DNA from: Actinomycetes bacterium
GTDB taxonomy: Bacteria > Actinomycetota > Acidimicrobiia > Acidimicrobiales > Bog-793
DNA length: 64,000 bases
Reading direction: 5' to 3'
Assembly: GCA_021796535.1 (NCBI GenBank)
Contig: JAKABW010000002.1
Location: 7,699-71,698, forward strand
The position numbers and the translations under genes were made by a program. This document shows positions 13,233 through 33,857 of the stretch, one piece after another; the stretch's first letter is position 1, and each line of letters opens with the position of its first letter. The notes below the pieces were generated by a model. The model did no database searches, was not told the DNA's origin, and saw nothing but the letters and a program-made list of their open reading frames with translations.

Positions 13233-15143
13233 TCAGCCGCCCTGTTGCAAGTACTGGTTTTGCTGGGAAAAAATAGGTGCACCCAGGAAGCGCAGGACAT
13301 TATTGGCGACTTGATAGAAGGTGATGTTGATTCCGTCTTTCAAGATGACGTTTTGTTCGGCATAGATTTGTGCATCTATCGTTGTCGAGTTACCGCTCGC
13401 GAAAGTTCCCGAAGTCCAGAAGAAAGGATGCACATTATTTATCGTGACCCCACCGCCGGTTACAACAAACTTCAGTGCGGCAGTGGATGGGCTTGTGCTG
13501 GCAGTGGGCTGATTCGGATAAGCAACGAGTGAGAATGTCGGAGGAGACGGTAAATTTGACGTCATTGTCAAACTGTTATTTTCACCAAAGTCTATGGAGT
13601 TGGCAAATATTGCCACATTGCTTCCCAACGTGAAGGTGCCGCCCGTTACGGCAAGGGCACATGCCGGGGCGTAAATGGTCATTGTCGTTATGGGAGATAC
13701 CGACTGATCAATCAAATATCCCAACAGAGATTGTGTGCCGCCGACGTTCGGATCATTCAAGCCGCCAGAGTTCGAAAGCACCGACGGCCAGTTGTAAATA
13801 AGTACCTGATTTTGATTCGGCAAAGAATTCAGGTATTTAGATACGGATTCGGAGGTTGTGGCAGTGCCTGAGCTCACCGTTATGTCAAGACCGCTGTTGT
13901 AGGTAAACGAGTTTCCTGAATTGGATGTGGAAAACGATATGGTGCCAGAATCCTGCTTGAAATTGTAAGGTGACGACTTGGTTCCCTGCCCCGTTGTGTC
14001 AAGATTGGAGCAGGCACCGGGGGGAACAATGACTATGGGATCAGAAGTATTGTTTGAGCTGACCGGTATGGGCTGGGGAGCCGGTTGATGCTGGTTGACC
14101 AAATTGACGGTCGGCGGCCCGGGGTTCTTGACTATTGTTCCGCCGCTGGCCCCGCCGGTCACAGAAACCTGCTTCCCGTAGTATGTGGTTATTCCTTTAA
14201 GGACTCTGGCGCCTCCGTAAAGGTTAACACCGGACGAGCTGGTTCCGTCATAGTAGGAAGTTATTTGGTTGATGGTATTTCCGTCATTTTCGAAATTGAC
14301 GATGCCGTTGCTGTATACGCATCCGTATATGACGGTTCCGCCTTGGAAAGTTGTGCTTCCCGAGCCGCCTATATAATCGTTTGCCCCGGTCCCCGAATTG
14401 CAGGCCGCATTTTTTGCACCGGTGCTGCCGAGTATGAAGGTTCCGGATCCTCTGATGGTGTTGGAATACAGATTCGGTTGTATCTGACCCGCGCCGGGCA
14501 ATACCGTGACGTCACCTTTTACTATAAAGCTGTTTCCGGCATAGATGGCATAATTTGGCAGGGTGGCGGCGGTGTCCGTAATGGATGCGGTGGCCACCGT
14601 GGTTGCCTGGTATCTGGAGTTCTTGGGATTGTTGCCGTTGGTGCCCAACCACCCCGTGGAGTATATGACGGCTTTGACCGGAGTGGACGCAGTCGGTCCG
14701 ACTGTGCTTCCCGAATTGGATGCAAGGGTATAAGTGCCTTTCCCGGGGGGAATTGCACAATTGCCGATCGGCGTGCCGTTGCTGTCCTCGTAAACTATGT
14801 TTGTGACGTAGTGTTCCGTCGCTCCGCCGGAATTTGCTATTGAACCGCTGCTTTCGCAGGGGTAGTTGCTGTAGTTCGGCGCTCCGGATTTTCCGGTGGC
14901 GTTGAGATTCGATATCGTTGCGTCAATTCCGGCTTGCGAGGCAAGTTGTGCGGTGGAATTGCCGTAGTAGGATCCGGACAGACCCACGGAAGAATTGGTC
15001 GAATTGAGTGTTGCCAATGTGAGTATGGTAAGCAACAAAACTATTGCCAATACCAATATCAGTGCACTGCCGCTTTCCGGTTCGTTATGCAGCTTATACG
15101 ATAGCCTGGATAAACCGTTTTTATGACGCTCGGTGCTCATCAT
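13233..15143 (-). CDS. Large PilX-like minor pilin / putative tip adhesin (paralog 1)
   Basis: Class III signal EPESG|SALILVLAIVLLL lacking Glu5; long G/S/T/N-rich beta-strand C-terminal region; start uncertain (15140-15173; GGGAG favours 15143). Confidence 0.75.
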   Translation of the reverse strand: MMSTERHKNGLSRLSYKLHNEPESGSALILVLAIVLLLTILTLATLNSTNSSVGLSGSYYGNSTAQLASQAGIDATISNLNATGKSGAPNYSNYPCESSGSIANSGGATEHYVTNIVYEDSNGTPIGNCAIPPGKGTYTLASNSGSTVGPTASTPVKAVIYSTGWLGTNGNNPKNSRYQATTVATASITDTAATLPNYAIYAGNSFIVKGDVTVLPGAGQIQPNLYSNTIRGSGTFILGSTGAKNAACNSGTGANDYIGGSGSTTFQGGTVIYGCVYSNGIVNFENDGNTINQITSYYDGTSSSGVNLYGGARVLKGITTYYGKQVSVTGGASGGTIVKNPGPPTVNLVNQHQPAPQPIPVSSNNTSDPIVIVPPGACSNLDTTGQGTKSSPYNFKQDSGTISFSTSNSGNSFTYNSGLDITVSSGTATTSESVSKYLNSLPNQNQVLIYNWPSVLSNSGGLNDPNVGGTQSLLGYLIDQSVSPITTMTIYAPACALAVTGGTFTLGSNVAIFANSIDFGENNSLTMTSNLPSPPTFSLVAYPNQPTASTSPSTAALKFVVTGGGVTINNVHPFFWTSGTFASGNSTTIDAQIYAEQNVILKDGINITFYQVANNVLRFLGAPIFSQQNQYLQQGG

Positions 15144-15307
15144 TTCTGTCATCTCCCGCATAGTCGGATGCAACCCAAGATTGATGGTGAAAGTATATCA
15201 TTTTAATTGCAATGTGAGAATATCATTATTTATCTTTTCTGTGCCTCTCGTCGGATTATGCCGACAAGGAATTGCGGTACCGGTAACGCCTCGGTATTTC
15301 GGGTACG

Positions 15308-15345
15308 TCAAAAAGACCCACGGGGTATCTTTCCCATGGGCTTAT
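15308..15345 (-). terminator. Intrinsic terminator after the pilW-like gene
   Basis: Minus strand GCCCAUGGG-aaagauac-CCCGUGGGU then CUUUUU. Confidence 0.7.
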
Positions 15346-15352
15346 TTGTATA

Positions 15353-16150
15353 TCAGGGACAAGTCGCGGTGGAAGGCGGCGTAGTGGAAGTCCCGGAAGA
15401 GGATGTGGACTGGGGGTTGGTATTCAGAGCCGCGACATTGTTAGTCATATTGACAATATTGGTCGGCAAACCGTTTGAGGCAAGCCGTGCTTTGAAAATA
15501 GAACCGACATACAGATTCGTGGTAAGCACATCCGGTCCGTTGCCGGAAGTCGCCAGACTAAACGTCGGAGCATTTTTTTGACTGTTGTATACGGGCTGGA
15601 CGATCGGCGCAAAAGCAGTGTTATTTGGGGGTGTAATCCCGTTGGTTCCGGTGCCTGCGGATGCCGACCAAACTCTCCAGTAAAGTATGTTGTCGGAAAC
15701 CGGTGTGCTGTTGGGAGCCGTCGTGGCGGCGGCAGGCTGCGGGATGACAAACTCAACCCACTCCGGGTTTGCGGGGCCGTTGAAGGCATCGCTTTCGGCA
15801 AGTACGGCATTGCCCGAACTGCCGACAATATATGAATTCTGATCCGTGTTAGTGGAAGGCAATACCGTATTGGCCGGCGGTATACACACGAATGTAGACG
15901 AAGCAAGATAATTGTCAATTGTCTGGATTCCGACAGATGCCGAACTCGTTCCGAAAGAGAGCTGTTGGGATGTGGTGTTGGCCGTATTTGTAGCCATGAG
16001 GAGAGGAGGTACGACGGATACCACGATCAAAGTCAGAATTAATGTCATTACCAACTCAATAAGGGTAGTGCCCCTTTCGTCGGAGGCAAACCTTTTCGTT
16101 ATGCTCTTTATGCCGTCCGCGCCGAGAAATTTTAGAGTGTCATTGCGCAA
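15353..16150 (-). CDS. PilW-like minor pilin
   Basis: DERG|TTLIELVMTLILTLIV prepilin motif with Glu5; overlaps the stop of the pilV-like gene. Confidence 0.8.
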   Translation of the reverse strand: MRNDTLKFLGADGIKSITKRFASDERGTTLIELVMTLILTLIVVSVVPPLLMATNTANTTSQQLSFGTSSASVGIQTIDNYLASSTFVCIPPANTVLPSTNTDQNSYIVGSSGNAVLAESDAFNGPANPEWVEFVIPQPAAATTAPNSTPVSDNILYWRVWSASAGTGTNGITPPNNTAFAPIVQPVYNSQKNAPTFSLATSGNGPDVLTTNLYVGSIFKARLASNGLPTNIVNMTNNVAALNTNPQSTSSSGTSTTPPSTATCP

Positions 16151-16598
16151 TTTGAGTCGCTCCGTTAACGTAATAGGTGGTGCCTTTGTTTTGCCATGAT
16201 ACTTTGACAGAGATCATATAAAGCCCCGATGTCGACGAAGTCTTTGTCGTTGAGGAAGTGGCTGCGGATGTGACGGAATAGTTTACCGTATATGAAATAC
16301 CGTCGACGGTTTGAGGGGATGTTATATGCAGGGACGGGGCACCGTTATACCCGGCGGCCTCCGCTTGGGCAATGGTGGCAGTCATGATGCTTGTGGCAGT
16401 GGAGTGTTCTTTTGCGAAAAGGCTTACCGAAAGAGAGGCCAGGTTGGCGCTGAGCAACATCGTGGCAAATATAAACAGGATCACTGCCGCCACAACTACT
16501 TCTATTAACCCAAAACCGTCTTCAGAATCCTTTGCATGCCATTTTGCTTTGCAAAATTGCCGTAAGGTTCTTTTGTTGACACCTGCTCTTATGTCCAT
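16140..16598 (-). CDS. PilV-like minor pilin
   Basis: SEDG|FGLIEVVVAAVIL motif; C-terminal ISVKVSW typical of PilV/GspI-like pilins. Confidence 0.82.
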   Translation of the reverse strand: MDIRAGVNKRTLRQFCKAKWHAKDSEDGFGLIEVVVAAVILFIFATMLLSANLASLSVSLFAKEHSTATSIMTATIAQAEAAGYNGAPSLHITSPQTVDGISYTVNYSVTSAATSSTTKTSSTSGLYMISVKVSWQNKGTTYYVNGATQIAQ

Positions 16599-16769
16599 GT
16601 GATTACACTACCTCTGAGTGGCGTACCTTATTCGATAAACAATGCCATTTAATAATATGGCAATTAAAATAACAATTCAATACAAATAACACTATATTTC
16701 CGTTGAGGCACCAAATTGTCTGTTTCTCACTCGGCACGGCGCGTTACGTACGGGTTGTAACTTCCGGCA

Positions 16770-18494
16770 TCAGCCCTCTATCAGGTATTCGTCGTTTATT
16801 ACCGCTCCGGAGGTATTTCCCCAGATGAGACTGGAATTACTGATTGGAGAAAAAGTCATGCTGAAATCTCCACCCGTTTGCTCCACGCCGGAGCAGGCAA
16901 AAATTTGCCCCGTTATCGTCGTCTGGTTGCCGTAGCTGACGCTTCCTGACGTATAGATAAACAGCGATATGTTGTGAGTCTGTACGTCTCCGCTTCCCGC
17001 GATCGTTACCGTTGTGCCGGTGTTTCCGAGGCCGCTACAGCCGTTGTTGGCGGTATAAGGCGAAGAAAGTCCGGCGATAATGGTGAAGGAAAGAGGCGTG
17101 CTGGCTCCGGGGGCAAGGGAGGATGCCGCCTGTATCGATAACGTACCCCCCCCGTTTCCTCCGTCCGCCGTAAAGTTGGCTACTTCGAGAGTGACGTTTG
17201 TATTCAGATTGACGGTTGAAAAAAGTATTCCCGACGCTATTGTACAGGTGGGAGCGTCTATTACCAGAGATGAAGAAGTCGCGTTGGCGATATCGTATAA
17301 AAAGGTGCCGGTTGTGGCGGATTTGGTAAAGAAGCTGGCACATGAGCCAGTTGTTCCGCCTCCCGTGGAAGGTACCGTAATCGTTTGGCTGGAGCTGCTG
17401 ATTGTCGGAGGATTGGGGAAAGACGGTATGGAAGGAGGTATGCCGCCGACCGGCTGATGACTCACACCGCCTCTGAACCAATCGGCGGAAGTGCCCCAAC
17501 TGGGGTAGCTGGCGCTGTTGGATACATATGAGACTCCGTCCACGAAATTGGTGCCGGCGCTGGCCGCCATGATGTTGCCTTCCGTGGTCGAACCTTTTGG
17601 ACCCGTGGCGGTGGCGGTTCCCCATATTGCACCGCTGCTTGGGCCGCCGTAGAGTTGGATCGATCCGTTGTAGGCACCGGCATTGCCTTTTACATAGGAG
17701 CTTCCCCCTATGTAAATGCCGCTGCTTCCCCCGTTGAAGCTGGCGGCATTTCCTTCGATTATGGAATTGCCGCTCTTTCCGAGAGACAAAGCTCCCATGG
17801 CGACAAAATTACCGGCTATCGTGCAATTCCCTAGGGATGCGGGACCATTGATCAAAACGTCAGCCGCATTGTTTACGTTGCCGTTGCATATTATATTTTG
17901 GGCAAATACGGACGGCAGGACGCCGTTTGCCGAAGGCGACAAAGAGTTGGAGTTGGTTGCATCAAAGGTGCCGTCCGTAAAAATGGCGTACCCCATGAGA
18001 CTGCCGGGCATGGAGGAAATTAGAAAATCGGCCTTCATTTCGGCGGATTGGGTTTTACTTCCTATGGAATCCTGGCCGTAGGAAGTAACGGTGGCTTTGA
18101 CGGGGGAGGGAGCCGAAGGCCCCAGCGTCGTTGACGTTCCGGAGCTGCCGCCGCAAGTTTCAGCCGTGGTACTTCCGGAACTCGCAAAGTATTCCACGGA
18201 CACTTGATACACGGAAGAGACCCCGGAGCTGTTTAAAGTCCCGGACTCTGTGCAGGGGTAGCCGCTGCTTTGAGGTGCGGAGTTGATTTGATTGAGAACC
18301 TGGCTTATGCCGGCATTGGCGGTCAGCTCGGCTTGAGAGGTGTTGGTATAGTCGAGGCTGTTGGCCGTGGCATTGCTGCTTACGCTGAGCCCCATGATTG
18401 AGGCGGCGGCCATCAGAGTGCCTATAATAAGCACCAGTATCAAAACACTGCCGTCATCCTGATTGTGGTGACGTGAAGCAACATGAGAGCGCAT
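16770..18494 (-). CDS. Large PilX-like minor pilin / putative tip adhesin (paralog 2)
   Basis: QDDG|SVLILVLIIG lacking Glu5; shares YPC..SG, PVKA...S.G and YAI(F/Y) blocks with paralog 1; Gly/Ser/Thr-rich repeats. Confidence 0.75.
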   Translation of the reverse strand: MRSHVASRHHNQDDGSVLILVLIIGTLMAAASIMGLSVSSNATANSLDYTNTSQAELTANAGISQVLNQINSAPQSSGYPCTESGTLNSSGVSSVYQVSVEYFASSGSTTAETCGGSSGTSTTLGPSAPSPVKATVTSYGQDSIGSKTQSAEMKADFLISSMPGSLMGYAIFTDGTFDATNSNSLSPSANGVLPSVFAQNIICNGNVNNAADVLINGPASLGNCTIAGNFVAMGALSLGKSGNSIIEGNAASFNGGSSGIYIGGSSYVKGNAGAYNGSIQLYGGPSSGAIWGTATATGPKGSTTEGNIMAASAGTNFVDGVSYVSNSASYPSWGTSADWFRGGVSHQPVGGIPPSIPSFPNPPTISSSSQTITVPSTGGGTTGSCASFFTKSATTGTFLYDIANATSSSLVIDAPTCTIASGILFSTVNLNTNVTLEVANFTADGGNGGGTLSIQAASSLAPGASTPLSFTIIAGLSSPYTANNGCSGLGNTGTTVTIAGSGDVQTHNISLFIYTSGSVSYGNQTTITGQIFACSGVEQTGGDFSMTFSPISNSSLIWGNTSGAVINDEYLIEG

Positions 18495-21288: not shown

Positions 21289-23266
21289 TAGTTCGAACTT
21301 ACGTCAGGCCGGGTAGGTTCGATGCCCTCTAGCAGTAAAGATGACTCATCTGGCCAGTTAGTACTGTCTACATCAGGCGCAAAGGCACCGCTGTCCCAAT
21401 TAGCTCGAACACTCTTTTCTGCGTAGGCGTTGGCCTAGCAAGTAAATCAAAGGTAGTTGAATTAGTGTCCGTCACTGTTCTCATGGTGTTGCGGGTCAAA
21501 GTTCCGAGGTGTTCAATTAGTTCCCTGAAGCCTCGAACGGGCTCGCCGTCTTGGTTTTCCTTGTGTGCAGCTTTTTTCTTCGCCCCTCGTGAAGGGGTGG
21601 CTGGAGCCACAGGGTTTTCTCTCGTAGTTGTTCGAAGCTCGTCGGTAAAGGTGAGTGGGGCAAGAACTTCACGCAGATGCCACACGAGGTAAGCAGCCAA
21701 CATGCAGATAAATACGTGAGACCGAACACGGCCCTCCAGGTAGTGATGGATGGGCCTCAAGTCGATGTCGTCTACTTTGATGTGACGAAAGTCCCGCTCA
21801 ACGTTAGATAGCGCCTTGTAGGCAATCGCTACCTCAGAAGCATCCACTTCGTTGTTGGTAAGTGTAGTTCGCAGAACATATATCCCATCTAAGGCCGCCT
21901 CTTGTTCGATGGCAGATTCTCGCCGGGTAACAGATAGGGATGAATTGGTAATGGTCACCTCGAAGTGCTTGGCTATCTTGTACTTGTTGAGAACTTTGCC
22001 GACCTTCATCCCAATCTTGTCTGATCCCTCAAGGCGACCATTTTCGACCGCCAAGATAATCGGTGCCAAGGATTTCTTCGGTGGCTCCTAGAAGTTCAAT
22101 TCGCTTGCGTTTTCGCTCGTAAGCCAAAACAGGATTGCGACAAGCAACCAGGCCTTCATCTGGATAGTCGAGATGGGTGAACTCGGCTAGATCCATCTCG
22201 TCGAATAGAGATAGTTGAAGCGGTCCGTTATTTCGGGCCAACCCCGCAATCTGGGGGGCACGAAGACATGTTAGCCAGCCGATATCGCCAGCTTCACGTA
22301 GTGCACTAATGCGAGCCGATGTAATCATCCCACGATCTCCAACCATGACAAGTGAATCGAGTTTGAAGCGGCGGCGAATCGAATCAACAATTGAAATGAA
22401 GGCACTTGGATCGGCTGTGTTGCCGGGAAAGACTTCAATAGCCACCGGACGACCATCTTTGTCAGTTAGAAGCCCATATTCGATCTGAGCAGTGCCCTTC
22501 TTTTTGTCACGCGAGTCTCCACGAGCTGCCAGTTCGTTCTTAGTTCCTTCTACCCACGATGACGACAGATCGAAATAGGCCAATGTAGAAGACTTTGACT
22601 CATTGGCTAAATGACGACGTGCAAGTTTTGTCTCGATTATTTCCTGGTTTGCGCCAAGCCAGTCCATTGCTCCATAGACCTCATCAGTTGAAATCCCATC
22701 AAGTCCCAGATCACATTCCAAGGTAGTATCATCCCACCACTTAGTCGTCGCCAACTTAGGGCGCTGGTGAACAACTCTGACAACTACCAGGGCAAATGCA
22801 ATGTCACGCTCTCTACAGGCAGGTCCTAAAAGTTCAAGAAACCTGAGTTTCTTAGCCATCTCAACAACTGCAGCTACGTGACCATGAGCCAGTGAACGCG
22901 TGCACTCTAGGCCTTCACCAGCAACTAGAAGAGTCTTGCCAGCCAAGGTCGCTCGTAGTGCATCTAAGGCACGATCAGGCAAGGCCGAGACATTTCCTAA
23001 CGTCTCATGACAGATCTTGCCTTCCTGGCGAAAGCTGCGGCGCAAGAGGTAAGAGACCGACTGACGATCCTCTCCGTCTTTACTTCGATACTTGCGCACC
23101 ACTCGGGCAACGTGAACGGCACTATCTTGCCTAGTCATACAGCTCTTCTAACATACCTCTTTGGCAATGTCACGCATTATCTTGGCTACATTAATACAAC
23201 CGAACCAAGCAATCGGTGCAGCTCAGCAGCCAGATCTGCGGAAATCGGAGACGCAAGTTCGGACTA
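21289..23266 (-). mobile_element. IS1634-family insertion sequence (~1.98 kb)
   Basis: 17-bp imperfect terminal IRs TAGTTCGAACTTACGTC (21289-21305) and GACGCAAGTTCGGACTA (23250-23266), 15/17 match; flanks GATCTC / AATCTC suggest a 5-6 bp target duplication. Confidence 0.88.
21368..23138 (-). pseudogene. IS1634-family DDE transposase split by a +1 frameshift near 22070
   Basis: ORF 22029-23138 (LLRRSFR, YFDLSSSW, PGNTAD, VGDRGM) and ORF 21368-22069 (LDGIYVLRT, YKALSNVERDFR, LRPIHH) join into one frame if one C in GAAATCCTTGGCA is removed. Confidence 0.85.
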
Positions 23267-23451: not shown

Positions 23452-24096
23452 TTATTTTTTGGATTTCGGCTTTGACGGGGTAAAGCTGGAAGGAGCCACC
23501 GCTGTCGGTGTCGCAGCCTGAGACGTATAAGACGTTGCAGTGATGGTGAGGGTCACCGAGTTGGATACGGTGTAGTTCAAAATGTTGAAAGATCCCGTAC
23601 CGGTTCCGCCCGTGCCGCCGGGAGATATTGACAGCGACTGAATGGTAATTACTCTTTTCAGGTTGTAGATCTGTTGTAAAAATGTATAGGCGTTATTGTA
23701 AGCACCGGTAACGGTCATCGTAATCGGGTCGTCGATGTAGCCGTTCAATTCTCCGAGCGTAAAGTTGGAGATGCTTTGCATGCTCACGCTGTCTTTGGTG
23801 GCCAGTTTGGCAAGCTGGAGTACTACCGCGGGTCTTTGCGGGTTGTAAGGAAACGCTACGGGGAAAACCTTTGACGTAAACGGCGCTTCTTTGTGGATGG
23901 TGCCCTGTTCGGATTTTAGGGTGTTCAATTCATCTTGTAACGTGAGGATCTGCGCTTGGTCGGTTTGTTCCTGCTGATGAACGCTGGCGAGTTTATTTTG
24001 TGCCGGTGATAGCAGCAGGAACCACCAAACTATCAATGCGATGACAAGAATTACCAGAGAGACAATAACTGCTGGTTGTTTTAGTAAATTTTTCAT
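23452..24096 (-). CDS. pilO: Type IV pilus alignment protein PilO
   Basis: N-terminal TM and coiled coil; ITMTVTGAY..FLQQIYNLKRVITIQSL ferredoxin-like motif; coupled to the upstream gene. Confidence 0.85.
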   Translation of the reverse strand: MKNLLKQPAVIVSLVILVIALIVWWFLLLSPAQNKLASVHQQEQTDQAQILTLQDELNTLKSEQGTIHKEAPFTSKVFPVAFPYNPQRPAVVLQLAKLATKDSVSMQSISNFTLGELNGYIDDPITMTVTGAYNNAYTFLQQIYNLKRVITIQSLSISPGGTGGTGTGSFNILNYTVSNSVTLTITATSYTSQAATPTAVAPSSFTPSKPKSKK

Positions 24097-25868
24097 GGTA
24101 CCACCGGTGTAGTAGGGTCAAATTTCTTATATCTGGTTGTATGGATAGATCCCAAAATATTAATTGTTGCAGACCAAGTTGCAGCCGTTGTTGGGGACGA
24201 TGTAATTGCTTGGTAAGAGGTGTATTGGAATTTGCCGTATTTATAGGTATCTTTTGCCCAATTGTAGAATGTCTGGTATCCGGAGTTGCCGTTGATTCCG
24301 TTCAACTGCAATTGTATCGTGCCGAGCACCTGAGTGGGGAGAGGCAGGGAGTACAACGAGGGGGTTGGGGAAGCCGGTGTGATTATGCCACTGGAAGAAG
24401 CCGGCGGGGCCGTCGTTGTGGGAGCCGTACCGTTGGGCCCGGAGGCGGCAGTGGCAGAAAATGACTTGACAATCAATTGTTTTGGCATGGTTGTGTTTAA
24501 TGATTTCAGCACAAGGGGCCAGTTGACTTCGTCGGCAATGGCAGAAAGGGCTATGTTTTTGTCTGTAATGAGCTTTTTGGCTTCTATGACCACATAGTTA
24601 TATTTCGGTATTGTGATATTGAGCTGATTTATCTGGGCTTGATCCTGTCCCACGGCATTTTCTGCATTATGTATGCTGAGAAGTTTAAAGCCGTAAATGA
24701 TGGCCAAAATAAGCAGTATGACGACCACGGCTGCTGCCACAAGCCGCCCGTTGTGTTTCAGTTTCTTTTGAGAGACGAAGTCGGCGGGTAAGAGATTGAT
24801 TCTTTTGATGTTTGGCGGTTCCGGTATGGCCAATCCGATGGCCACTGCGGCAACGTCGTCCAATTGACTTCCCGGTGCTGTATCCTGACCTATTTTTTCG
24901 CCCTGTACGGCTCTTAGGCAACTGGCTCGCTCTACCGGTATCGGCAGGGCCTGCGAGAGTCTGTCGATAAAGCCGGTGAGTCTCGATCCGCCTCCCGTAA
25001 TCAGAAGACGACGCATTTGCATGCCGCTGTAGGTGGAACTGAAGTAATCTATGGAGTTTTTGATTTCCGTAATGAGTTTGGACGAAGCATCCCGTGCGGC
25101 GGCAACGGCAACCGGCGGGGTGTGACGGTCGGGACGTCCCACGTATTTTTTGATGGTGTCCGCATCGGAAAGAGGTATATCAAGCGAAGTGGCTATGGCT
25201 CTGGTGACGGAATTGCCGCCTTCGGCTATGGTACGGACAAAGATCGGTCTTCCGGCATCGTGGACAACCACGAGAGTGAGGTCTGCTCCCACGGATACGA
25301 TTGCCTCCGGTCCGCTTCTTGCCGTTATGTTGTCTCCCAGCGACCTGATAAGAGCGGAAGAAGCCAAGTCTATGCTCTTCGGCACAAGATCGGCGGCAGA
25401 TATTACGTCAAGCAACGGGTAGACCAAATCGCTGTGCGCCGCCGCCAACATAACTTTTATCGGTTGCCCCGGAGAAGTCGGGGCAGAAGAAATTCTGCGG
25501 GCAGAAAGCAACGTTTTTTCGCTCGGAAATGGAATAAGATCCATGGCCTGCAATTTTACTGCTTCATCGAGTTCATTGTCCGGAACGGACGGCAGTTCGA
25601 TTTCACGGGAAATTGCCCGGAGTCCCGAAACTACCAAATGTACGGCAAGCGGTTTTTCGAGACGGCCGCGCTTTAATCTGGGTACAGTCAGACACTGTTT
25701 GATGGCGGCAGTTACGGCATCAGGGTTGACAATTGCTCCGTCGACGACTGCACCTTGCGGCAGTGCGGCTTCAGCGAACGCAATGAGACTCTTATGATGA
25801 CCCTTAACGGATACCTTGGCTATTCTTACTGCCGTGGCTGAGATTTCAAGACCTATATTGGTTGACAT
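24093..25868 (-). CDS. pilM: PilM-PilN fusion protein
   Basis: Actin-like PilM (IGLEIS, GAVVDG, LLITGGGSRL, AVAIGLA) runs in frame into the PilN INLLP motif, a TM helix, a coiled coil and a VNWP..L domain. Confidence 0.85.
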   Translation of the reverse strand: MSTNIGLEISATAVRIAKVSVKGHHKSLIAFAEAALPQGAVVDGAIVNPDAVTAAIKQCLTVPRLKRGRLEKPLAVHLVVSGLRAISREIELPSVPDNELDEAVKLQAMDLIPFPSEKTLLSARRISSAPTSPGQPIKVMLAAAHSDLVYPLLDVISAADLVPKSIDLASSALIRSLGDNITARSGPEAIVSVGADLTLVVVHDAGRPIFVRTIAEGGNSVTRAIATSLDIPLSDADTIKKYVGRPDRHTPPVAVAAARDASSKLITEIKNSIDYFSSTYSGMQMRRLLITGGGSRLTGFIDRLSQALPIPVERASCLRAVQGEKIGQDTAPGSQLDDVAAVAIGLAIPEPPNIKRINLLPADFVSQKKLKHNGRLVAAAVVVILLILAIIYGFKLLSIHNAENAVGQDQAQINQLNITIPKYNYVVIEAKKLITDKNIALSAIADEVNWPLVLKSLNTTMPKQLIVKSFSATAASGPNGTAPTTTAPPASSSGIITPASPTPSLYSLPLPTQVLGTIQLQLNGINGNSGYQTFYNWAKDTYKYGKFQYTSYQAITSSPTTAATWSATINILGSIHTTRYKKFDPTTPVVP

Positions 25869-26028: not shown

Positions 26029-27273
26029 TTATGCGTTTGCTCCGTTTTTCTGAACAAGCGATATGTAACCGAACATGGGCAGGTACATAGATATAACTAT
26101 GAATCCTATTGAAATTCCAAGGAAAACAATAATAAGCGGTTCAAGCAGTGAAGACAGACTGGCGACGGTTGTTTCAATTTCGTCTTCGTAGAATTTGGTA
26201 ACCCTGTTGAGCATGTCGTCAAGCGCTCCGGACTCTTCTCCGGTTTCTATCATTTGCGTTACCATATTAGGTATTACGGAAAAGACCGATAAGGCTTCCG
26301 CCAAGCCTTTCCCTTCTCTGACGGTATTTTCTGCATTGCGGAACGCTTCCGCTACGATCGCGTTGCCGGCATTGTCTGCAGTGATTTCCAAGGCTTCTAT
26401 GATGCCCACGCCGGATGCAAGAAGCGATGCCAGGGTCCCGGTACCTCTCGTAATGGATATTTTATGGATCAACGGTCCGAATATGGGCATCTTTAATTTA
26501 AAAGCATCCCATTTTCTTCTTCCGTCCGGTGTGTGGATCCAACGGTTGAAGAGAATTAGTATTCCTACGACAACCGCAACAAAAACAGCCAACCAGTAGG
26601 TCGCCAGATCGTTGGATACGTCTATGACGATTTGGGTGGGGAGCGGCAAAGTTCCCTTTAGGGTGCTGTAGATCTTTTTGAAAGTAGGGACGACAAATAT
26701 CATCAAGGCTATAACAACCAGAATGACTATCGACATGACCATGGCCGGATACGTCATGGCTGATTTTACTTTGCGCCTTAACTCCACCTGTTTTTCAATT
26801 GTGGTTGCCAAACGCAAAAGAGTTGTATCCAGTGATCCTCCGGCTTCGCCGGCCTTTACCATGGCTATGTAAAGAGGGCTGAATGCTTTGGGATGTTTTT
26901 CCAGAGCACGCGAAAATGACACACCCTGTTCCAAGTCTCTTCTGACGTTGTTGACGGCAGACTGCAGAACCTTGGAAGTCAGCTGATCGCTGATGATGGT
27001 CAGGGCTCTGACCAGAGTGAGACCCGCCGTTACCATGGTGGCCAGCTGCCGGCTCATCAGGGCAACTTCTTTGAGGTTTGCCTTGTCGTTGATTCCCGGA
27101 ATTATGAGTTCTTTGCGGAGGTCTAATTTTGGTTGAGGCTGGATGTTGACGGGGATATAGCCCATCGATCTGAGCTTATTCCCGACGGCCGTAATGCTTT
27201 CCGATTCTATTTTACCTTTAATCAGTTTTCCGTTGGAGTCTCTTACTTTATATTCAAAAACAGTTGTTGGCAT
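26029..27273 (-). CDS. pilC: Type IV pilus platform protein PilC (GspF family)
   Basis: RQLATMVTAG, AGEAGG, KVKSAMTYP, GEESG and LLEP..MYLPMF motifs. Confidence 0.95.
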   Translation of the reverse strand: MPTTVFEYKVRDSNGKLIKGKIESESITAVGNKLRSMGYIPVNIQPQPKLDLRKELIIPGINDKANLKEVALMSRQLATMVTAGLTLVRALTIISDQLTSKVLQSAVNNVRRDLEQGVSFSRALEKHPKAFSPLYIAMVKAGEAGGSLDTTLLRLATTIEKQVELRRKVKSAMTYPAMVMSIVILVVIALMIFVVPTFKKIYSTLKGTLPLPTQIVIDVSNDLATYWLAVFVAVVVGILILFNRWIHTPDGRRKWDAFKLKMPIFGPLIHKISITRGTGTLASLLASGVGIIEALEITADNAGNAIVAEAFRNAENTVREGKGLAEALSVFSVIPNMVTQMIETGEESGALDDMLNRVTKFYEDEIETTVASLSSLLEPLIIVFLGISIGFIVISMYLPMFGYISLVQKNGANA

Positions 27274-27306: not shown

Positions 27307-29061
27307 TTATAAAGTGTTTAAGTGATCCCGCAACTCATTGGGATTGCGGCAACGGTCAAAAGCGTGAGCTTCCGTTATGGTTCCGGCTCTGACGGCTTTG
27401 GCAAGGGCCTGGTCCATGGTTTGCATGCCGTAAGAACTGCCCGTCTGCATTAATGAGTATATCTGGTGTGTTTTTGCCGTTCTGATGAGGTTTCGTATAC
27501 CGGAAGTACATGCCATGATTTCCGCGATGGGCAGTCTCGCCGTGCCGTTTGCATTCAAGACAAGTTGCTGTGTCACGACGGCTTCCAAAGTTCCGGCAAG
27601 CTGAACGCGAATCTGGTCTTGCTGGTTTGTCGGGAATACGTCGATAATACGGTCTATCGTTTGGGGTGCATCTTGCGTGTGCAGTGTGGCAAATACCAAG
27701 TGGCCGGTTTCGGCGGCCGTCAGTGCCGTAGAAATGGTTTCCAGGTCTCTCATTTCACCGACCAGAATGACATCCGGGTCCTGCCGGAGTACGTGCTTTA
27801 GAGATTCGGCAAACGATACGGTGTCAACCCCCACTTCTCTCTGGTTCACTATTGCCTTTTTGCTGGTATGGAGAAACTCTATGGGGTCTTCTACGCTGAC
27901 TATGTGAAGCGGACGGGCCATATTGATAATGTCGATCAGTGAGGCGAGAGTGGTGGACTTTCCCGAACCGGTGGGACCGGTAACAAGTACCAGACCGTGT
28001 CGCAGTTCGGCAAAAGTTTTGATTACGTCGGGCAGACCCAATGTGGAGAAAGCGGGTATCTCGTGGGGAATCATTCTCAGTACGGCACCTATGTACCCGC
28101 GCTGCTGCATGACGTTTACCCTGAAACGCCCCACTCCCTTTACGGCGTAGCTGGTATCCAATTCTTTTGTTTCTTCGAATCTTTCCCTGATCGCCTGAGG
28201 CAAAATTGAATAAATCATTTCACGCAGACTGTCGTTGTCCAAAACGGGCAACTGGTCTATTTTTCTGATGGAACCGTTTATTCTGATCGCCGGCGGCAGG
28301 CCTACAGCCAAGTGTAAGTCGGAGGCTTTATTTGCGACGGCGTAAGTAAGAAGTTGGTCTACGTCCGGATGCTTTGGTTTGGAGCCGTTATCCGATTGGG
28401 GGTCTTTCATCTGGGCTGTATCAGATGCGGCATTGGCCGAGACATCGTCTTTGCCCATGCGGGCAAGTTGTGATACGGTCAGTCTTTCTTCGCTTTCAGC
28501 GCTGGCCCGAGGCTCCGGTGTTTTTGTCACCGGTGCCGGTGCGGGTTTTGGATTGTCCGACGGCGGTATGTACGCGCCGGAGTAATTGTCGCGTTCGATG
28601 CGTGTAATAATTTGACTTATCTGCATGGGATCGGCTATAAACACAGCCGCCACTTCACGTCCGGCCAGAAGCGATATTTTGGCTATTTGGTCAGCGCTCA
28701 AAGGCGTGCTTGCCACAACCGACAATTCGTTGGAGCCGTCTACGGCATATCCTATTGCGCCGAATCTTCTTGCCACGCCGGGCGGCAATATGGTGGCGGC
28801 TTCGGTGGTCGGGGGATCCGTGTCGAGATCGACTACTTTAACGCCTGAAATCTGTGACAGCGTGTCAAGACAGGATTTGGTCGACAACAATCCCGAATCG
28901 GACAGTATTACCGATATGGGAGCCATTCTTTGTGTGGCTATGTCCACTACCCGTGCCGCTTCGTCTTGGGAGATTACTTCACCGCGGATCAGGGCTTCCA
29001 GAAGTCTTTGTCCCCAATCGATAGGTTGCTGTGTCGATGTATTTGATGTTGTGTCACTCAT
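27307..29061 (-). CDS. pilT: Retraction ATPase PilT with an N-terminal MshEN/T2SSE_N-like domain
   Basis: ASDLHL, GPTGSGKST, EDPIE, DPDVILVGEMRD, TLHT and GIRNLIR (AIRNLIRE-like); ~230-aa N-terminal extension. Confidence 0.9.
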   Translation of the reverse strand: MSDTTSNTSTQQPIDWGQRLLEALIRGEVISQDEAARVVDIATQRMAPISVILSDSGLLSTKSCLDTLSQISGVKVVDLDTDPPTTEAATILPPGVARRFGAIGYAVDGSNELSVVASTPLSADQIAKISLLAGREVAAVFIADPMQISQIITRIERDNYSGAYIPPSDNPKPAPAPVTKTPEPRASAESEERLTVSQLARMGKDDVSANAASDTAQMKDPQSDNGSKPKHPDVDQLLTYAVANKASDLHLAVGLPPAIRINGSIRKIDQLPVLDNDSLREMIYSILPQAIRERFEETKELDTSYAVKGVGRFRVNVMQQRGYIGAVLRMIPHEIPAFSTLGLPDVIKTFAELRHGLVLVTGPTGSGKSTTLASLIDIINMARPLHIVSVEDPIEFLHTSKKAIVNQREVGVDTVSFAESLKHVLRQDPDVILVGEMRDLETISTALTAAETGHLVFATLHTQDAPQTIDRIIDVFPTNQQDQIRVQLAGTLEAVVTQQLVLNANGTARLPIAEIMACTSGIRNLIRTAKTHQIYSLMQTGSSYGMQTMDQALAKAVRAGTITEAHAFDRCRNPNELRDHLNTL

Positions 29062-31418
29062 ATTACAACCCTCAAGATCTCTTCAAGGCTGGTGTAACCC
29101 AGGGCTGCTTTGCGCAATCCGTCTTGGCGCATGGTTTGCATTCCTTGTTCAACAGCAATTTTTTGTATTTCAGATGTTTGAAGTCTGTTGATCACCGCAC
29201 GTTCGATTTCTTCCGTAATCACCATGACCTCTTGTATGGACATACGTCCGTGATAACCGGTGCCGCCGCAGGCCTGACATCCGACGGCCCGGCGGAATTT
29301 AGGTGTGATGGTATCCAGCCAACTCATATCTTGGAATCCGGCCGCCAATAAATCCTCTTCCGTCGGACTGAGAGGAGTCGCGCAGTTGTCACAGAGCACT
29401 CTGGCAAGTCTTTGCCCGAGTACGCAGTCCAAGGCCGATCCCACCAGAAACGGTTCCACTCCCATTTCGATGAGGCGCATGGGGGTACCGGCCGCATCGT
29501 TTGTGTGCAAACAGGAGAGCACCAAGTGTCCGGTCAGAGCCGCTTCAATGGCGATGGTTGCGGTGTCGCGGTCTCTTATCTCTCCTACCAGCACGACGTC
29601 GGGGTCGGAGCGCAAGATGGAGCGCAGTGCGCTTGCAAAGCTGAGTCCGGCTTTGGGGTTTACCTGTACCTGATTGATGCCGCGCATTTGGTATTCAACG
29701 GGATCTTCTACCGTAATTAAATTGCGCTCTGCCGTGTTCAGTTTTGACAGGGTGGCATACAAAGTGGTTGATTTTCCGGACCCGGTCGGTCCCGTTACCA
29801 AAATGGTGCCGTAAGGTTTTTTGTAGGAGGATTCATAGCGTTTCAGTACGTCTGGTTGGAAACCGAGTCTTTCCAAGTCCAGCACCACAGCCGTTTTGTC
29901 CAGGACCCTCAAGGCCACCTTTTCGCCGTGAACGGTCGGAAGGGTGGCGACCCGCAGATCTATTTCCTTGCTGCCCACGCGCAGAGAAATACGTCCGTCC
30001 TGCGGTATGCGGTGTTCGGCTATGTCCAAGTCAGCCATAATTTTTAGTCGGCTGACAACCCCTGCGTGGATGGCTTTTGGCGCCGATGTGATGTGGTGCA
30101 AAACACCGTCGATCCGGAATCTGACCTGAATATTGTCTACCGAAGGCTCCAAGTGAATGTCAGATGCCCTTTGGTTGAGGGCTTGCTTGAGGATCAAATT
30201 GACGAATTTTACTATGGGGGCATCGTCCACCACGCTCAGGAGGTTATTGAGATCCGGAGCTTGTTGTTCCGATTCCACGGTCAGTGCGGCATTTTGGGCA
30301 AAAAGATCCGCTTCTGCCGTTTGCTGGTAGAAGCGGCTGATGTAGTTGTCTATTTGATCTGCTTTGCAGACCACGGCTTCAATTTGGCCGCCTATGATTG
30401 TTCTCACGTCGTCCATGGCAAAGACGTCCATAGGGTTGGCCATGGCTATGACCGGTTTGTCGGCATGAAAACCTATGCCCAACACTTTATAACGGCGTGC
30501 CGGGGCTTCCGGGATAAGATCCACCGCCCGCTTGTCTATTTCCCATGAGTTTAAGTCGACAAACTTAAAGCCGGCTTCAACCGCCGTGGCTCTCATCAAG
30601 TCGTCTTCTGTGACAAATTTTTTGTTCAACAAAATGTCTCTCAGCGAGTGCCCCGTGGAGTCTTTTTCGGCGACGGCTGCTTTCATGTCCTCTTCCGATA
30701 CCGTACCCCACTCAAGCAGAATTTTTTCAAGGGTGGGCTTGGCTTCTTTCGTTGGGGAAGGCATGTCGATGTCGTCGAAAGTAAGTTCGGCTCCGGTACC
30801 CATCACATTGGGCGACATTACGGGTACCGCATTCGCATTGAGGATTGCTTCCTCGGGTTCTTCTCCAAGGAAGTCCTGATTCATGGGCTGGCTCTTCAGG
30901 ATAAAGTCGGCTATGGCGTTGGAAGCCTGGCTGTCGACGGACATTCCGAAATCGCTTTCCGATGTCTTTGAAGTCGTGGTGCTGGTTTCAAACTTGGCTA
31001 TGGTCGCGTTGGCAATCGGATTTGACTGACTTGATTGCTGCGGTTGATAGAGGTGTCCCAGATATTGGGCAATCTGGCTTTTGGCGGCGACGACGACTCT
31101 TATGTCACCGCCTACGGCGGCCCTGATGTCATCCAAAGTCAATACATTTTCGGGCGAGGCTATTGCCACCACCGGTATTCCTCTTTCCCACCCGATGGGG
31201 GCGACAAGGTGGCGTTTGGCAAATTGTTCGGGTAGCACGGCAGCTCTTGGCTGTGGTCCCGCTGCTGAGGAGGACGAGGAAAATTTGTTCAGATCAACAA
31301 ACTCGAGACCAGCTATACGCGCCAAGGCTTTGCCTTCTTCGATTTCTGCCTGAGGAGTTGGGTTGAGCTTGGTATCCGCCACGGCTAACCCACTTCCCAA
31401 GAAATCTTCAGGCACCAC
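29058..31418 (-). CDS. pilB: Extension ATPase PilB with two N-terminal T2SSE_N-like domains
   Basis: ASDIH, PQDGRI, GPTGSGKST, DPDVVLVGEIRD and Zn motif CDNC..CQAC; GTG start after AAGGAG. Confidence 0.95.
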   Translation of the reverse strand: MVPEDFLGSGLAVADTKLNPTPQAEIEEGKALARIAGLEFVDLNKFSSSSSAAGPQPRAAVLPEQFAKRHLVAPIGWERGIPVVAIASPENVLTLDDIRAAVGGDIRVVVAAKSQIAQYLGHLYQPQQSSQSNPIANATIAKFETSTTTSKTSESDFGMSVDSQASNAIADFILKSQPMNQDFLGEEPEEAILNANAVPVMSPNVMGTGAELTFDDIDMPSPTKEAKPTLEKILLEWGTVSEEDMKAAVAEKDSTGHSLRDILLNKKFVTEDDLMRATAVEAGFKFVDLNSWEIDKRAVDLIPEAPARRYKVLGIGFHADKPVIAMANPMDVFAMDDVRTIIGGQIEAVVCKADQIDNYISRFYQQTAEADLFAQNAALTVESEQQAPDLNNLLSVVDDAPIVKFVNLILKQALNQRASDIHLEPSVDNIQVRFRIDGVLHHITSAPKAIHAGVVSRLKIMADLDIAEHRIPQDGRISLRVGSKEIDLRVATLPTVHGEKVALRVLDKTAVVLDLERLGFQPDVLKRYESSYKKPYGTILVTGPTGSGKSTTLYATLSKLNTAERNLITVEDPVEYQMRGINQVQVNPKAGLSFASALRSILRSDPDVVLVGEIRDRDTATIAIEAALTGHLVLSCLHTNDAAGTPMRLIEMGVEPFLVGSALDCVLGQRLARVLCDNCATPLSPTEEDLLAAGFQDMSWLDTITPKFRRAVGCQACGGTGYHGRMSIQEVMVITEEIERAVINRLQTSEIQKIAVEQGMQTMRQDGLRKAALGYTSLEEILRVVI

Positions 31419-32759: not shown

Positions 32760-33857
32760 TCAAATGACCGAGATGGCCATGCCCTCTTTCCTGAGCATTA
32801 CCCTCAAGTCTTGCGGCACGGGGGCGTTGGCAATGGCTTGTTCCGTGTCGATGACTCCTTTTTTCAAAAGATCCAGAAGCGACTGGGCGAAAGACTGCAT
32901 GCCGTAGTATTCGCCTTCGTTGACGATTTCCGGGATGACGCTGGTGCGTCCCGGATCGAGGATGCACTGCTGAATTCGACCGTTGACAACCATAATTTCC
33001 AGAGCCGGAACCCTTCCTTTTCCGTCCGCTCTCGGTACCAGGCGTTGGCAAATCGTTCCCCTGAGGGAGCCCGCCAGCGACAGCCTTGCCTGCTGTTGCC
33101 GGTTTTCCGGGAAAAAGTCGATAATTCTGTTGATTGTCTCGACGGAGTCGATCGTGTGTAGGGTTGAGAGTACCAAGTGACCGGTTTCCGCGGCAGTCAA
33201 AGCCGTGGCCACGGTTTCCGGGTCCCTCATTTCTCCGATAAGAATGATATCCGGATCTTCTCTCAGGGATGATCTGAGGGCCGTGATGAAACTTTCCGTG
33301 TCGAAGCCCACCTCACGTTGATTGATGGCGGCCAATTCATCTCTGTGAAGTATTTCTATGGGGTCCTCAATGGTGACGATGTGGCATTCTCGCGTTTTGT
33401 TGATGTGTCCTATCATGGCACCGAGCGTGGTGGTTTTTCCGGATCCCGTCGGACCGGTCACGAGTACAATACCGTTTTTTTCTTCCGACAATTTTCTGAC
33501 TACCGTCGGCAGACCGAGCTCGTCAAGTGTTTTGGTGCTTGAGTTAACGCGTCTGAATACCATGCCTATGGAGCCGCGCTGGCGGAAAGCGTTAACCCTG
33601 AAACGTCCCAGATGGGGGACGGAGTAAGCAAAGTCACATTCGTGGTGGGCTTCAAAATTTGCCCAGAGCTTGGCATGCATGATTCCTTGTGCAAGCGGAA
33701 CCATGTCTTCTGCTTGGATGATCGACTCCTGGTTCAGGCGCATCAGATCGCCGTTGATCCTCATCCTGGGAGGAGAACCCACCTTTATGTGAAGGTCGGA
33801 TCCCTCCACCTCAATCAGTTGTCCCAGTAATCTGTTCAGTGTGGCTATGTCAAGCAT
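32760..33857 (-). CDS. Second retraction ATPase (PilT/PilU family)
   Basis: GSDLH, GRFRVN, GPTGSGKTT, REDPDIILIGEMRD and TLHT; no AIRNLIRE motif. Confidence 0.9.
   Translation of the reverse strand: MLDIATLNRLLGQLIEVEGSDLHIKVGSPPRMRINGDLMRLNQESIIQAEDMVPLAQGIMHAKLWANFEAHHECDFAYSVPHLGRFRVNAFRQRGSIGMVFRRVNSSTKTLDELGLPTVVRKLSEEKNGIVLVTGPTGSGKTTTLGAMIGHINKTRECHIVTIEDPIEILHRDELAAINQREVGFDTESFITALRSSLREDPDIILIGEMRDPETVATALTAAETGHLVLSTLHTIDSVETINRIIDFFPENRQQQARLSLAGSLRGTICQRLVPRADGKGRVPALEIMVVNGRIQQCILDPGRTSVIPEIVNEGEYYGMQSFAQSLLDLLKKGVIDTEQAIANAPVPQDLRVMLRKEGMAISVI

Follow-up and report, generated by a model that had tools for sequence, protein, structure and literature searches.

The DNA examined here, called the window, is a stretch of 64,000 nucleotides from an Actinomycetes bacterium (GenBank assembly GCA_021796535.1, contig JAKABW010000002.1, positions 7,699 to 71,698), an acid-mine Actinomycetota genome. 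On its reverse strand, within a type IV pilus (pil) gene cluster, lies a pilT gene for a protein of 584 amino acids (aa), the long PilT, in which a complete PilT ATPase core is preceded by an MshEN/GSPII (N1) domain. The fusion is an old one that has been conserved and typifies its lineage; in Acidimicrobiales-like genomes it is the usual form of the PilT encoded beside pilB. The first-pass annotation of the window had recognized this fusion, which is not unusual within the lineage. It is somewhat probable that the protein is a genuine operon-encoded PilT retraction ATPase whose tethered N1 domain serves as a docking or regulatory module, and not as a canonical sensor of c-di-GMP (cyclic dimeric GMP).

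A PilT core behind an N1 domain

The gene and its parts are as follows; the type of evidence is given in brackets.

27307..29061, reverse strand: long pilT, whole gene, 584 aa and stop (open reading frame (ORF) list, translation, Pfam, NCBIfam)
29069..29073, reverse strand: Shine-Dalgarno-like GAGGG, 7 nt before the long pilT ATG (read from the sequence)
28846..29016, reverse strand: helical half of the N-terminal domain (N-domain), residues 16-72, counterpart of the MshEN c-di-GMP-binding bundle (helices of the AlphaFold2 (AF2) model)
28579..28845, reverse strand: alpha/beta half of the N-domain, residues 73-161 (PF05157 match, superposition on GspE N1E)
28366..28578, reverse strand: Pro/Ala/Ser-rich linker, residues 162-232 (composition, predicted local distance difference test (pLDDT), low conservation)
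27310..28365, reverse strand: PilT ATPase core, residues 233-584 (TIGR01420, best Protein Data Bank (PDB) match 6ojx, motifs)
27478..27501, reverse strand: AIRNLIRE-like motif GIRNLIRT, residues 521-528 (6 of 8 positions identical to AIRNLIRE)

The core behaves as a PilT in every sequence test. Pfam places PF00437 (T2SSE) at residues 226-506, and the NCBIfam model TIGR01420 (pilT_fam, for type 4a pilus ATPases of the PilT/PilU family) matches residues 234-576 over model positions 2-343 with 475.6 bits against a cut-off of 319.1 (477.5 bits in the whole-genome scan), whereas the PilB equivalog TIGR02538 stays at 165.3 bits, below its cut-off of 675.65. The core begins at about residue 233, near the DVDQLL stretch proposed in the first annotation. 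Its best solved relatives (residues 233-581) are PilT structures, with 6ojx at E 4.3e-111 and the range extending to 6.3e-104, while PilB/PilF structures reach about 1e-34. The PilTs of G. metallireducens (6ojx), A. aeolicus (2ewv) and P. aeruginosa (3jvu) align with it from end to end, and the likeness includes the Walker A and B motifs, the His box, the AIRNLIRE-like motif and the place of the gene in a pil operon beside pilB and pilC. In contrast, these solved PilTs have 356-390 residues and no N1, whereas the long PilT carries 232 extra N-terminal residues, comprising the MshEN domain and the linker. By patterns that we take to define the ATPase motifs, Walker A is GPTGSGKS (residues 362-369), the Asp box is EDPIE (residue 391), Walker B is VILVGEMRD (residues 431-439) and the His box is TGHLVFATLHT (residues 452-462).

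The AIRNLIRE motif is described in excerpts of two reports (10.1101/2025.10.30.685630; PMC6762196) as conserved in PilT and absent from PilU, and is placed by a model at the PilC interface. The eight commonest variants of this site among the long forms (60 of 69 rows) all read [AG][IV][RQ]NL[IV]Rx. A second, short PilT paralog encoded upstream in the window carries RIQQCILD in the same place, and the variants listed for the upstream short clade, which cover 28 of 34 rows, are of the RI[QER]Q type. Because GIRNLIRT is kept in the long protein and lost in the short one, the long protein is PilT proper by this criterion. Moreover, it has three Cys in total and no CxxC pair, and therefore no PilB-type tetracysteine Zn region, whereas the adjacent PilB has a Cys cluster at 676, 679, 714 and 717. 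An identity of the long ATPase as PilB was ruled out by the NCBIfam scores, the PDB matches and this missing tetracysteine. Judged by homology and operon context, a hexamer of the long PilT on PilC would drive pilus retraction.

A role of the long protein in extension or priming, or a bifunctional one, with the short paralog as the actual retraction ATPase, is quite unlikely. Such a role would agree with the N1 domain being otherwise a feature of extension ATPases (parts of PMC4624772 and PMC11656802), with the second, canonical-length PilT encoded upstream, and with V. cholerae PilT, which is reported to promote extension of the mannose-sensitive haemagglutinin (MSHA) pilus too (parts of PMC9815625 and PMC11656802). 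It is opposed by the PilT nature of the core, by the distribution of the AIRNLIRE-like motif between the two paralogs, by the lack of the tetracysteine region, and by a complete PilB gene that adjoins long pilT.

Residues 16-161 are confirmed as a true MshEN/GSPII (N1) domain. The Pfam model PF05157 (MshEN) reaches 38.7 bits at residues 73-157 (E 9.9e-10; cut-off 23.1) and also matches all 50 PilT N-domains of alignment A1, which consists of this domain and 49 relatives cut from the fetched loci. The AF2 model built from A1 has a pLDDT of 89.9 and a predicted template modelling score of 0.79, and it comprises four helices between residues 16 and 72 (16-26, 32-45, 49-55 and 61-72) followed by an alpha/beta unit (86-161). 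All 20 Foldseek matches of this model at E <= 0.001 are MshEN, PilF GSPII, X. citri PilB-N or XpsE-N, with a probability of 1.00 for 5htl, 9g1w and 8pdk. With VIA-align, the N-domain superposes on V. cholerae MshEN (5htl) with Z 14.9 over 139/139 residues and a root-mean-square deviation of 3.5, on 9g1w with Z 13.7 and on X. citri PilB-N with Z about 13, while its alpha/beta half (residues 87-157) superposes on GspE N1E with Z 6.2 (4pht) and 6.0 (2bh1); unrelated chains reach Z <= 4.4. A sequence search with residues 1-170 found T. thermophilus PilF at 6.6e-10, 9g1w (GSPII-A) at 3.9e-4 and 5htl at 0.12.

Two of these structures are instructive for comparison. V. cholerae MshEN has the same two-part fold, a four-helix bundle and an alpha/beta subdomain, and belongs to the same Pfam family. 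The domain of the long PilT is 21% identical to it, has both 24-residue motifs degenerate and sits on a PilT core instead of a PilB/MshE core. GSPII-A of T. thermophilus PilF (9g1w) is the best Foldseek match (E 2.1e-8) and has a likewise degenerate motif; it differs in that it belongs to an array of three GSPII domains carried by an extension ATPase. The likeness to the N-domain of the adjacent PilB, earlier seen by eye, is weak but real in BLASTP (24% over 84 residues, E 2e-4). The Pro/Ala linker of the first annotation is also present, as 71 residues with 11 P, 10 A and 8 S that are 45% identical to those of the closest relative (L001), and the pLDDT of the model drops past residue 160.

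The annotated start of long pilT is credible because its ATG (29061-29059) shares bases with the pilB stop TGA (29060-29058) in an ATGA overlap, a Shine-Dalgarno-like GAGGG precedes it, and L001 has the same starting Met and aligns with the long PilT from residue 1. The start thus lies upstream of the domain. Long pilT is translationally coupled to pilB, and pilC, pilM and pilO then lie downstream. That the N-domain is a functionless relic or an annotation artefact, with the real start near residue 202-233, is very improbable. Internal Met codons do occur at residues 202 and 218, and the domain is less conserved among relatives than the core (21-33% as against 65-75% identity). On the other hand, if translation began internally, some 690 nt of coding sequence that is conserved and under purifying selection would be unexplained, and the confident fold, the occurrence of the domain in every one of the 50 aligned relatives as well as in further families, and the coupled start, conserved in L001, all speak against a relic, as does the low ratio of nonsynonymous to synonymous substitution rates (dN/dS) of 0.07 in the N-domain.

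Distribution and descent of the fusion

Among the matches listed, 120 of 120 homologues (555-707 aa) carry PF05157 together with PF00437, and where names are given they are PilT from Acidimicrobiales. The best 80 genome loci belong mostly to metagenome-assembled genomes labelled Acidimicrobiales, Acidimicrobiaceae or 'Actinomycetes', and the N-domain is present in the PilT ORFs of 49 further loci. The identity ranges given above refer to the window's PilT: 65-75% for the core in the fetched loci, and 21-33% for the N-domain except in L001, which reaches 85%. In the comparison with L001, the N-domain has a dN/dS of 0.07, the linker one of 0.44 and the core one of 0.023, at a dS of about 1.4-1.6, which is near saturation. 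The N-domain is under purifying selection.

Beyond its own family, the fusion occurs in six or more GTDB families of the phylum. Forty regions from other families were fetched and 38 analysed, hand-picked from the best profile matches and so not a random sample. In 11 of these 38, a PilT-type ORF with the N-domain follows directly after pilB; they come from two families of the same class (f6, f8) and four of other classes (f9, f15, f16, f18). One further region probably carries the fusion, 17 have a PilT in that place without an N-domain match, and 9 have no PilT within the fetched stretch.

In a quick IQ-TREE of 170 N-domains, a branch with a Shimodaira-Hasegawa-like approximate likelihood ratio test (SH-aLRT) value of 95 has 68 PilT domains on one side and 102 PilB domains on the other, with long branches flagged. 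The 24% identity and the separate clades ruled out that the domain is a recent copy of the one in the adjacent PilB. In a FastTree of 145 PilT cores with a PilB root, the upstream short paralogs form a clade of 38 rows, and the pilB-adjacent PilTs, with 107 rows, make up the other. The long cores, 69 in all, fall together inside one subclade of 93 rows (support 91), whose outgroups are all short and which also holds 12 short and 9 unknown PilT rows. This topology is consistent with a single gain and some later losses or gene splits; the PilB root alone sets the direction of change.

In five loci from metagenome-assembled genomes (L018, L022, L024, L063 and L070), separate overlapping frames encode the N-domain and the PilT core, through either frameshift errors in the low-complexity linker or real gene splits. 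In four regions of other families of the phylum (L084, L095, L107 and L108), two PilB-type genes stand in tandem, both with an N-domain, and a short PilT follows.

Profile counts extend more widely and are not counts of the fusion. The A1 profile matched 141 of 201 genomes of the phylum, which is not a fusion count because the profile also matches PilB N-domains (71.2 bits for the window's PilB). Seven unpublished genomes enter this tally and no other result. Among protein representatives, it matched 23,010 at E <= 0.001, 5,894 at 1e-10 and 86 at 1e-30. When the best 150 of the 23,010 matches were compared with the window's cores by BLASTP, 107 had no ATPase core, being fragments and multi-repeat proteins, 29 were of PilB type, 6 of PilT type and 8 weak or partial; this classification is not usable as a census of the fusion. 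Several of the matches (P0125, P0126, P0133, P0149, P0153 and others) are proteins of about 1,300 aa with 6-7 MshEN-like stretches and no PilT or PilB core by BLASTP, that is, long arrays of GSPII-like repeats. The three nearest protein-atlas clusters have MshEN on 86%, 82% and 10% of their members, with Actinomycetota as the commonest phylum, and the same atlas lists N-terminally longer PilTs without MshEN in other phyla; both observations are leads only.

Ligand site, partner surface and the role of the domain

MshEN domains bind c-di-GMP through two tandem 24-residue motifs, RLGxx(L/V/I)(L/V/I)xxG(L/V/I)(L/V/I)xxxxLxxxLxxQ, for which a relaxed form is used in searches (Wang 2016, PMC5013675, in part). 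In the window's N-domain both motifs are degenerate, with R19-L20-L21 (RLL in place of RLG, as noted in the first annotation) and P48-I49-S50, so that position 3 is Leu21 and Ser50. At position 3 of motif I, 41 of the 50 PilT N-domains have Ala, 4 have Gly and 3, among them the window's, have Leu, and the closing Gln of this motif is replaced by Ala or Ser. The relaxed motif was matched by none of the 50 PilT N-domains and by none of the 59 PilB ORFs of the same loci, and the window's PilB is also without a match. NF053729, the NCBIfam model of the c-di-GMP motif, does not match the window's N-domain at E <= 0.01, and a score of 33.0 bits leaves the window's PilB below the cut-off of 38 for the NCBIfam model of the c-di-GMP motif. 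Canonical c-di-GMP binding is thus unlikely for the long PilT on these motifs, and the family is less clear-cut. The proposal that PilT and PilB respond to the same ligand loses ground on the same counts, as a shared c-di-GMP input is unlikely. Since all 59 related PilBs and the window's PilB lack the relaxed motif, MshEN-type c-di-GMP control of extension may be absent in this lineage. The genome does, however, have seven GGDEF matches.

It is rather unlikely that the N-domain is a receptor of a nucleotide second messenger (non-canonical c-di-GMP or another) that switches retraction and mirrors the control of extension through MshE/PilB. [quoted passage not shown] In addition, the consensus is not absolute, because the first Arg is dispensable in PilF GSPII-B, which binds c-di-GMP without it (PMC11731258, in part). 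The missing relaxed motif, the replaced position-3 Gly and closing Gln, and the absence of an NF053729 match in the window's domain argue in the other direction. Published variants agree with the latter, since G11I abolished c-di-GMP binding in MshE (PMC5013675), GSPII-A of PilF with one degenerate motif did not bind c-di-GMP (PMC11731258), and neither did XpsE-N with its degenerate motif (PMC5013675, PMC11731258), each as given in an excerpt of the source.

The conserved residues of the domain suggest a different surface or partner from those of the PilB N1. At least 10 positions that are >= 80% conserved in PilB-N fall below 30% in PilT-N; those not kept include E61, F76, D85, the V123-F-A-x-D-D-x-R130 stretch and T144. 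Conserved in PilT-N are W16, R19, P75, P84 and A102, of which W16, P75, P84 and A102 are PilT-specific in comparison with PilB-N. The loss of the residues most conserved in PilB-N, for example the V-F-A-x-D-D-x-R stretch, argues for a different binding surface or a different partner, and the earlier suggestion that PilT docks with the same module as PilB is not borne out. GspE N1E with GspL (2bh1, 4pht) and X. citri PilB-N with PilZ (7lkm-7lko) are precedents for N1 as a protein-docking module. In comparison with both, PilT-N has not retained what the PilB-N domains of the lineage conserve, and docking here is an analogy. A complex prediction that paired residues 1-350 of PilM (alignment A2) with residues 12-162 of the N-domain (A1) scored 0.26 against a mark of 0.32 and is evidence neither way.

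The docking or regulatory role of the domain is preferred over that of a canonical c-di-GMP sensor because the published motif is missing (0/50 and 0/59). On this preferred reading, the PilT of an ancestor within Actinomycetota would have gained an MshEN/GSPII (N1) domain akin to PilB's, which would have been kept since on a disordered linker of about 70 residues. The hexameric core would work on PilC like any PilT, and six flexibly tethered N1 domains could form a docking or regulatory module at the pilus base. Through a protein partner, they may anchor or place the motor there, or control how it is exchanged for PilB, and they would not be canonical c-di-GMP sensors. The short upstream paralog without AIRNLIRE may have a PilU-like accessory role. 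A more specific version, in which the PilT N1 is a switch for the motor at the pilus base that competes with the PilB N1 for the PilM/PilC platform site or senses a small ligand that is not canonical c-di-GMP, is unlikely. If it were true, extension and retraction would be set reciprocally by one input, and the fusion would be a natural experiment on N1 function independent of extension.

Several points weigh against the docking or regulatory role and the descent proposed for it. R19 (47/50), L20 (49/50) and W16 (47/50) are near-invariant at the mouth of the former ligand site, and this conservation could equally mean that a ligand is still bound there. NF053729 matches 14 of the 50 PilT N-domains at E <= 0.01, the best at 9.4e-9, in what look like sub-threshold matches. 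The expression behind the relaxed-motif counts had no scripted positive control, and by eye it fits the second motif of G. metallireducens PilB. Both trees were quick or FastTree trees and the regions were hand-picked, in addition to the long branches of the N-domain tree, and the short or split PilTs within the long clade may be losses or frameshifts. Moreover, PilT-family matches per genome number 2, 4, 2, 2 and 2 with the long form and 2, 3, 3, 2 and 1 with the short adjacent form; these counts are alike in both genome sets, so the second paralog is not specific to the fusion, and a PilT/PilU-like division of labour is not specifically tied to it.

PilT and PilU are stated to lack T2SSE_N in an excerpt of PMC4624772, where this lack is argued to be the reason for their escape from c-di-GMP control; this agrees with the first-pass view that PilT normally has no such domain. 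N1/MshEN is treated as a PilB feature in sections of PMC6858323 and PMC11656802, and the latter also describes as poorly understood how the machine discriminates PilB from PilT and what the mechanical role of N1 is. No description of a PilT with an MshEN/N1 domain was found in the literature searched; supplements were not covered, and Supplementary Tables 3 and 5 of Wang 2016, on MshEN proteins, could hold one. As far as we have seen, the architecture is recorded in databases, with both Pfam domains tagged, but not discussed. A PilT with an N1 domain under purifying selection in several Actinomycetota families uncouples the domain from extension, and the fusion is a clean system for testing whether N1 works as a docking handle, as a sensor or as a gate. 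For annotators, PF05157 with PF00437 alone does not mean PilB or GspE.

The pil cluster and its host genome

On the reverse strand the cluster runs in the order short PilT paralog, pilB, long pilT, pilC, pilM-pilN-like fusion and pilO. Its members other than long pilT, and two further pilus genes of the window, are given below.

32760..33857, reverse strand: short PilT paralog, 365 aa, without N-domain, 45% identical to the long core
29058..31418, reverse strand: pilB, 786 aa, the extension ATPase, with two stretches of Pfam MshEN and Cys residues clustered C-terminally
26029..27273, reverse strand: pilC platform protein, 414 aa, with two stretches of PF00482 (T2SSF)
24093..25868, reverse strand: pilM, 591 aa, whose membrane and C-terminal part is PilN-like, PF11104 (PilM_2) at 6-348
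23452..24096, reverse strand: pilO, 214 aa, PF04350
31809..32636, forward strand: prepilin peptidase pilD, PF06750 and PF01478
19449..20051, forward strand: pilin with N-terminal methylation motif, PF07963

The comparison with PilU systems is partial. As in these, the host genome has two PilT-family paralogs, of which the short one is without AIRNLIRE, as PilU is. In contrast, the long PilT keeps the motif and is thus not PilU-like, and the short paralog is closer to PilT than to PilU structures (1.5e-100 for PilT 5fl3, better than 2.7e-85 for PilU 9n32). In many related loci the short PilT paralog is likewise conserved, some 4 kb upstream of the long PilT. The host genome is 2.0 Mb and 92% complete, and has exactly two PilT-family matches over the cut-off and three Pfam MshEN matches, two in PilB and one in the long PilT. 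One of its seven GGDEF matches (G000:C13:50437-50871, reverse strand) has an in-frame TGA.

The window's PilB has a low-complexity N-terminal half of 230 residues. The PilM-PilN-like fusion has a hydrophobic segment near 375-395, followed by a long C-terminal region rich in Ser, Thr and Pro. Four ORFs at 13233-18494 on the reverse strand (646, 265, 152 and 574 aa) have pilin-like hydrophobic N-termini and bodies rich in Ser, Thr, Gly and Asn, and probably serve the same pilus system as minor pilins or tip proteins. Between pilO and the pilin gene, at 21368-23138 on the reverse strand, two overlapping ORFs are present, one of 369 aa with a weak DDE_Tnp_1 match and one of 233 aa with no Pfam match. 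This pair looks like an insertion sequence transposase inserted in the pil cluster, possibly frameshifted.

Among the sequencing runs listed, no RNA run contains the stretch. It is present in four DNA runs of one mine-drainage study, which may be its source, and in two mine-tailings runs with small shares.

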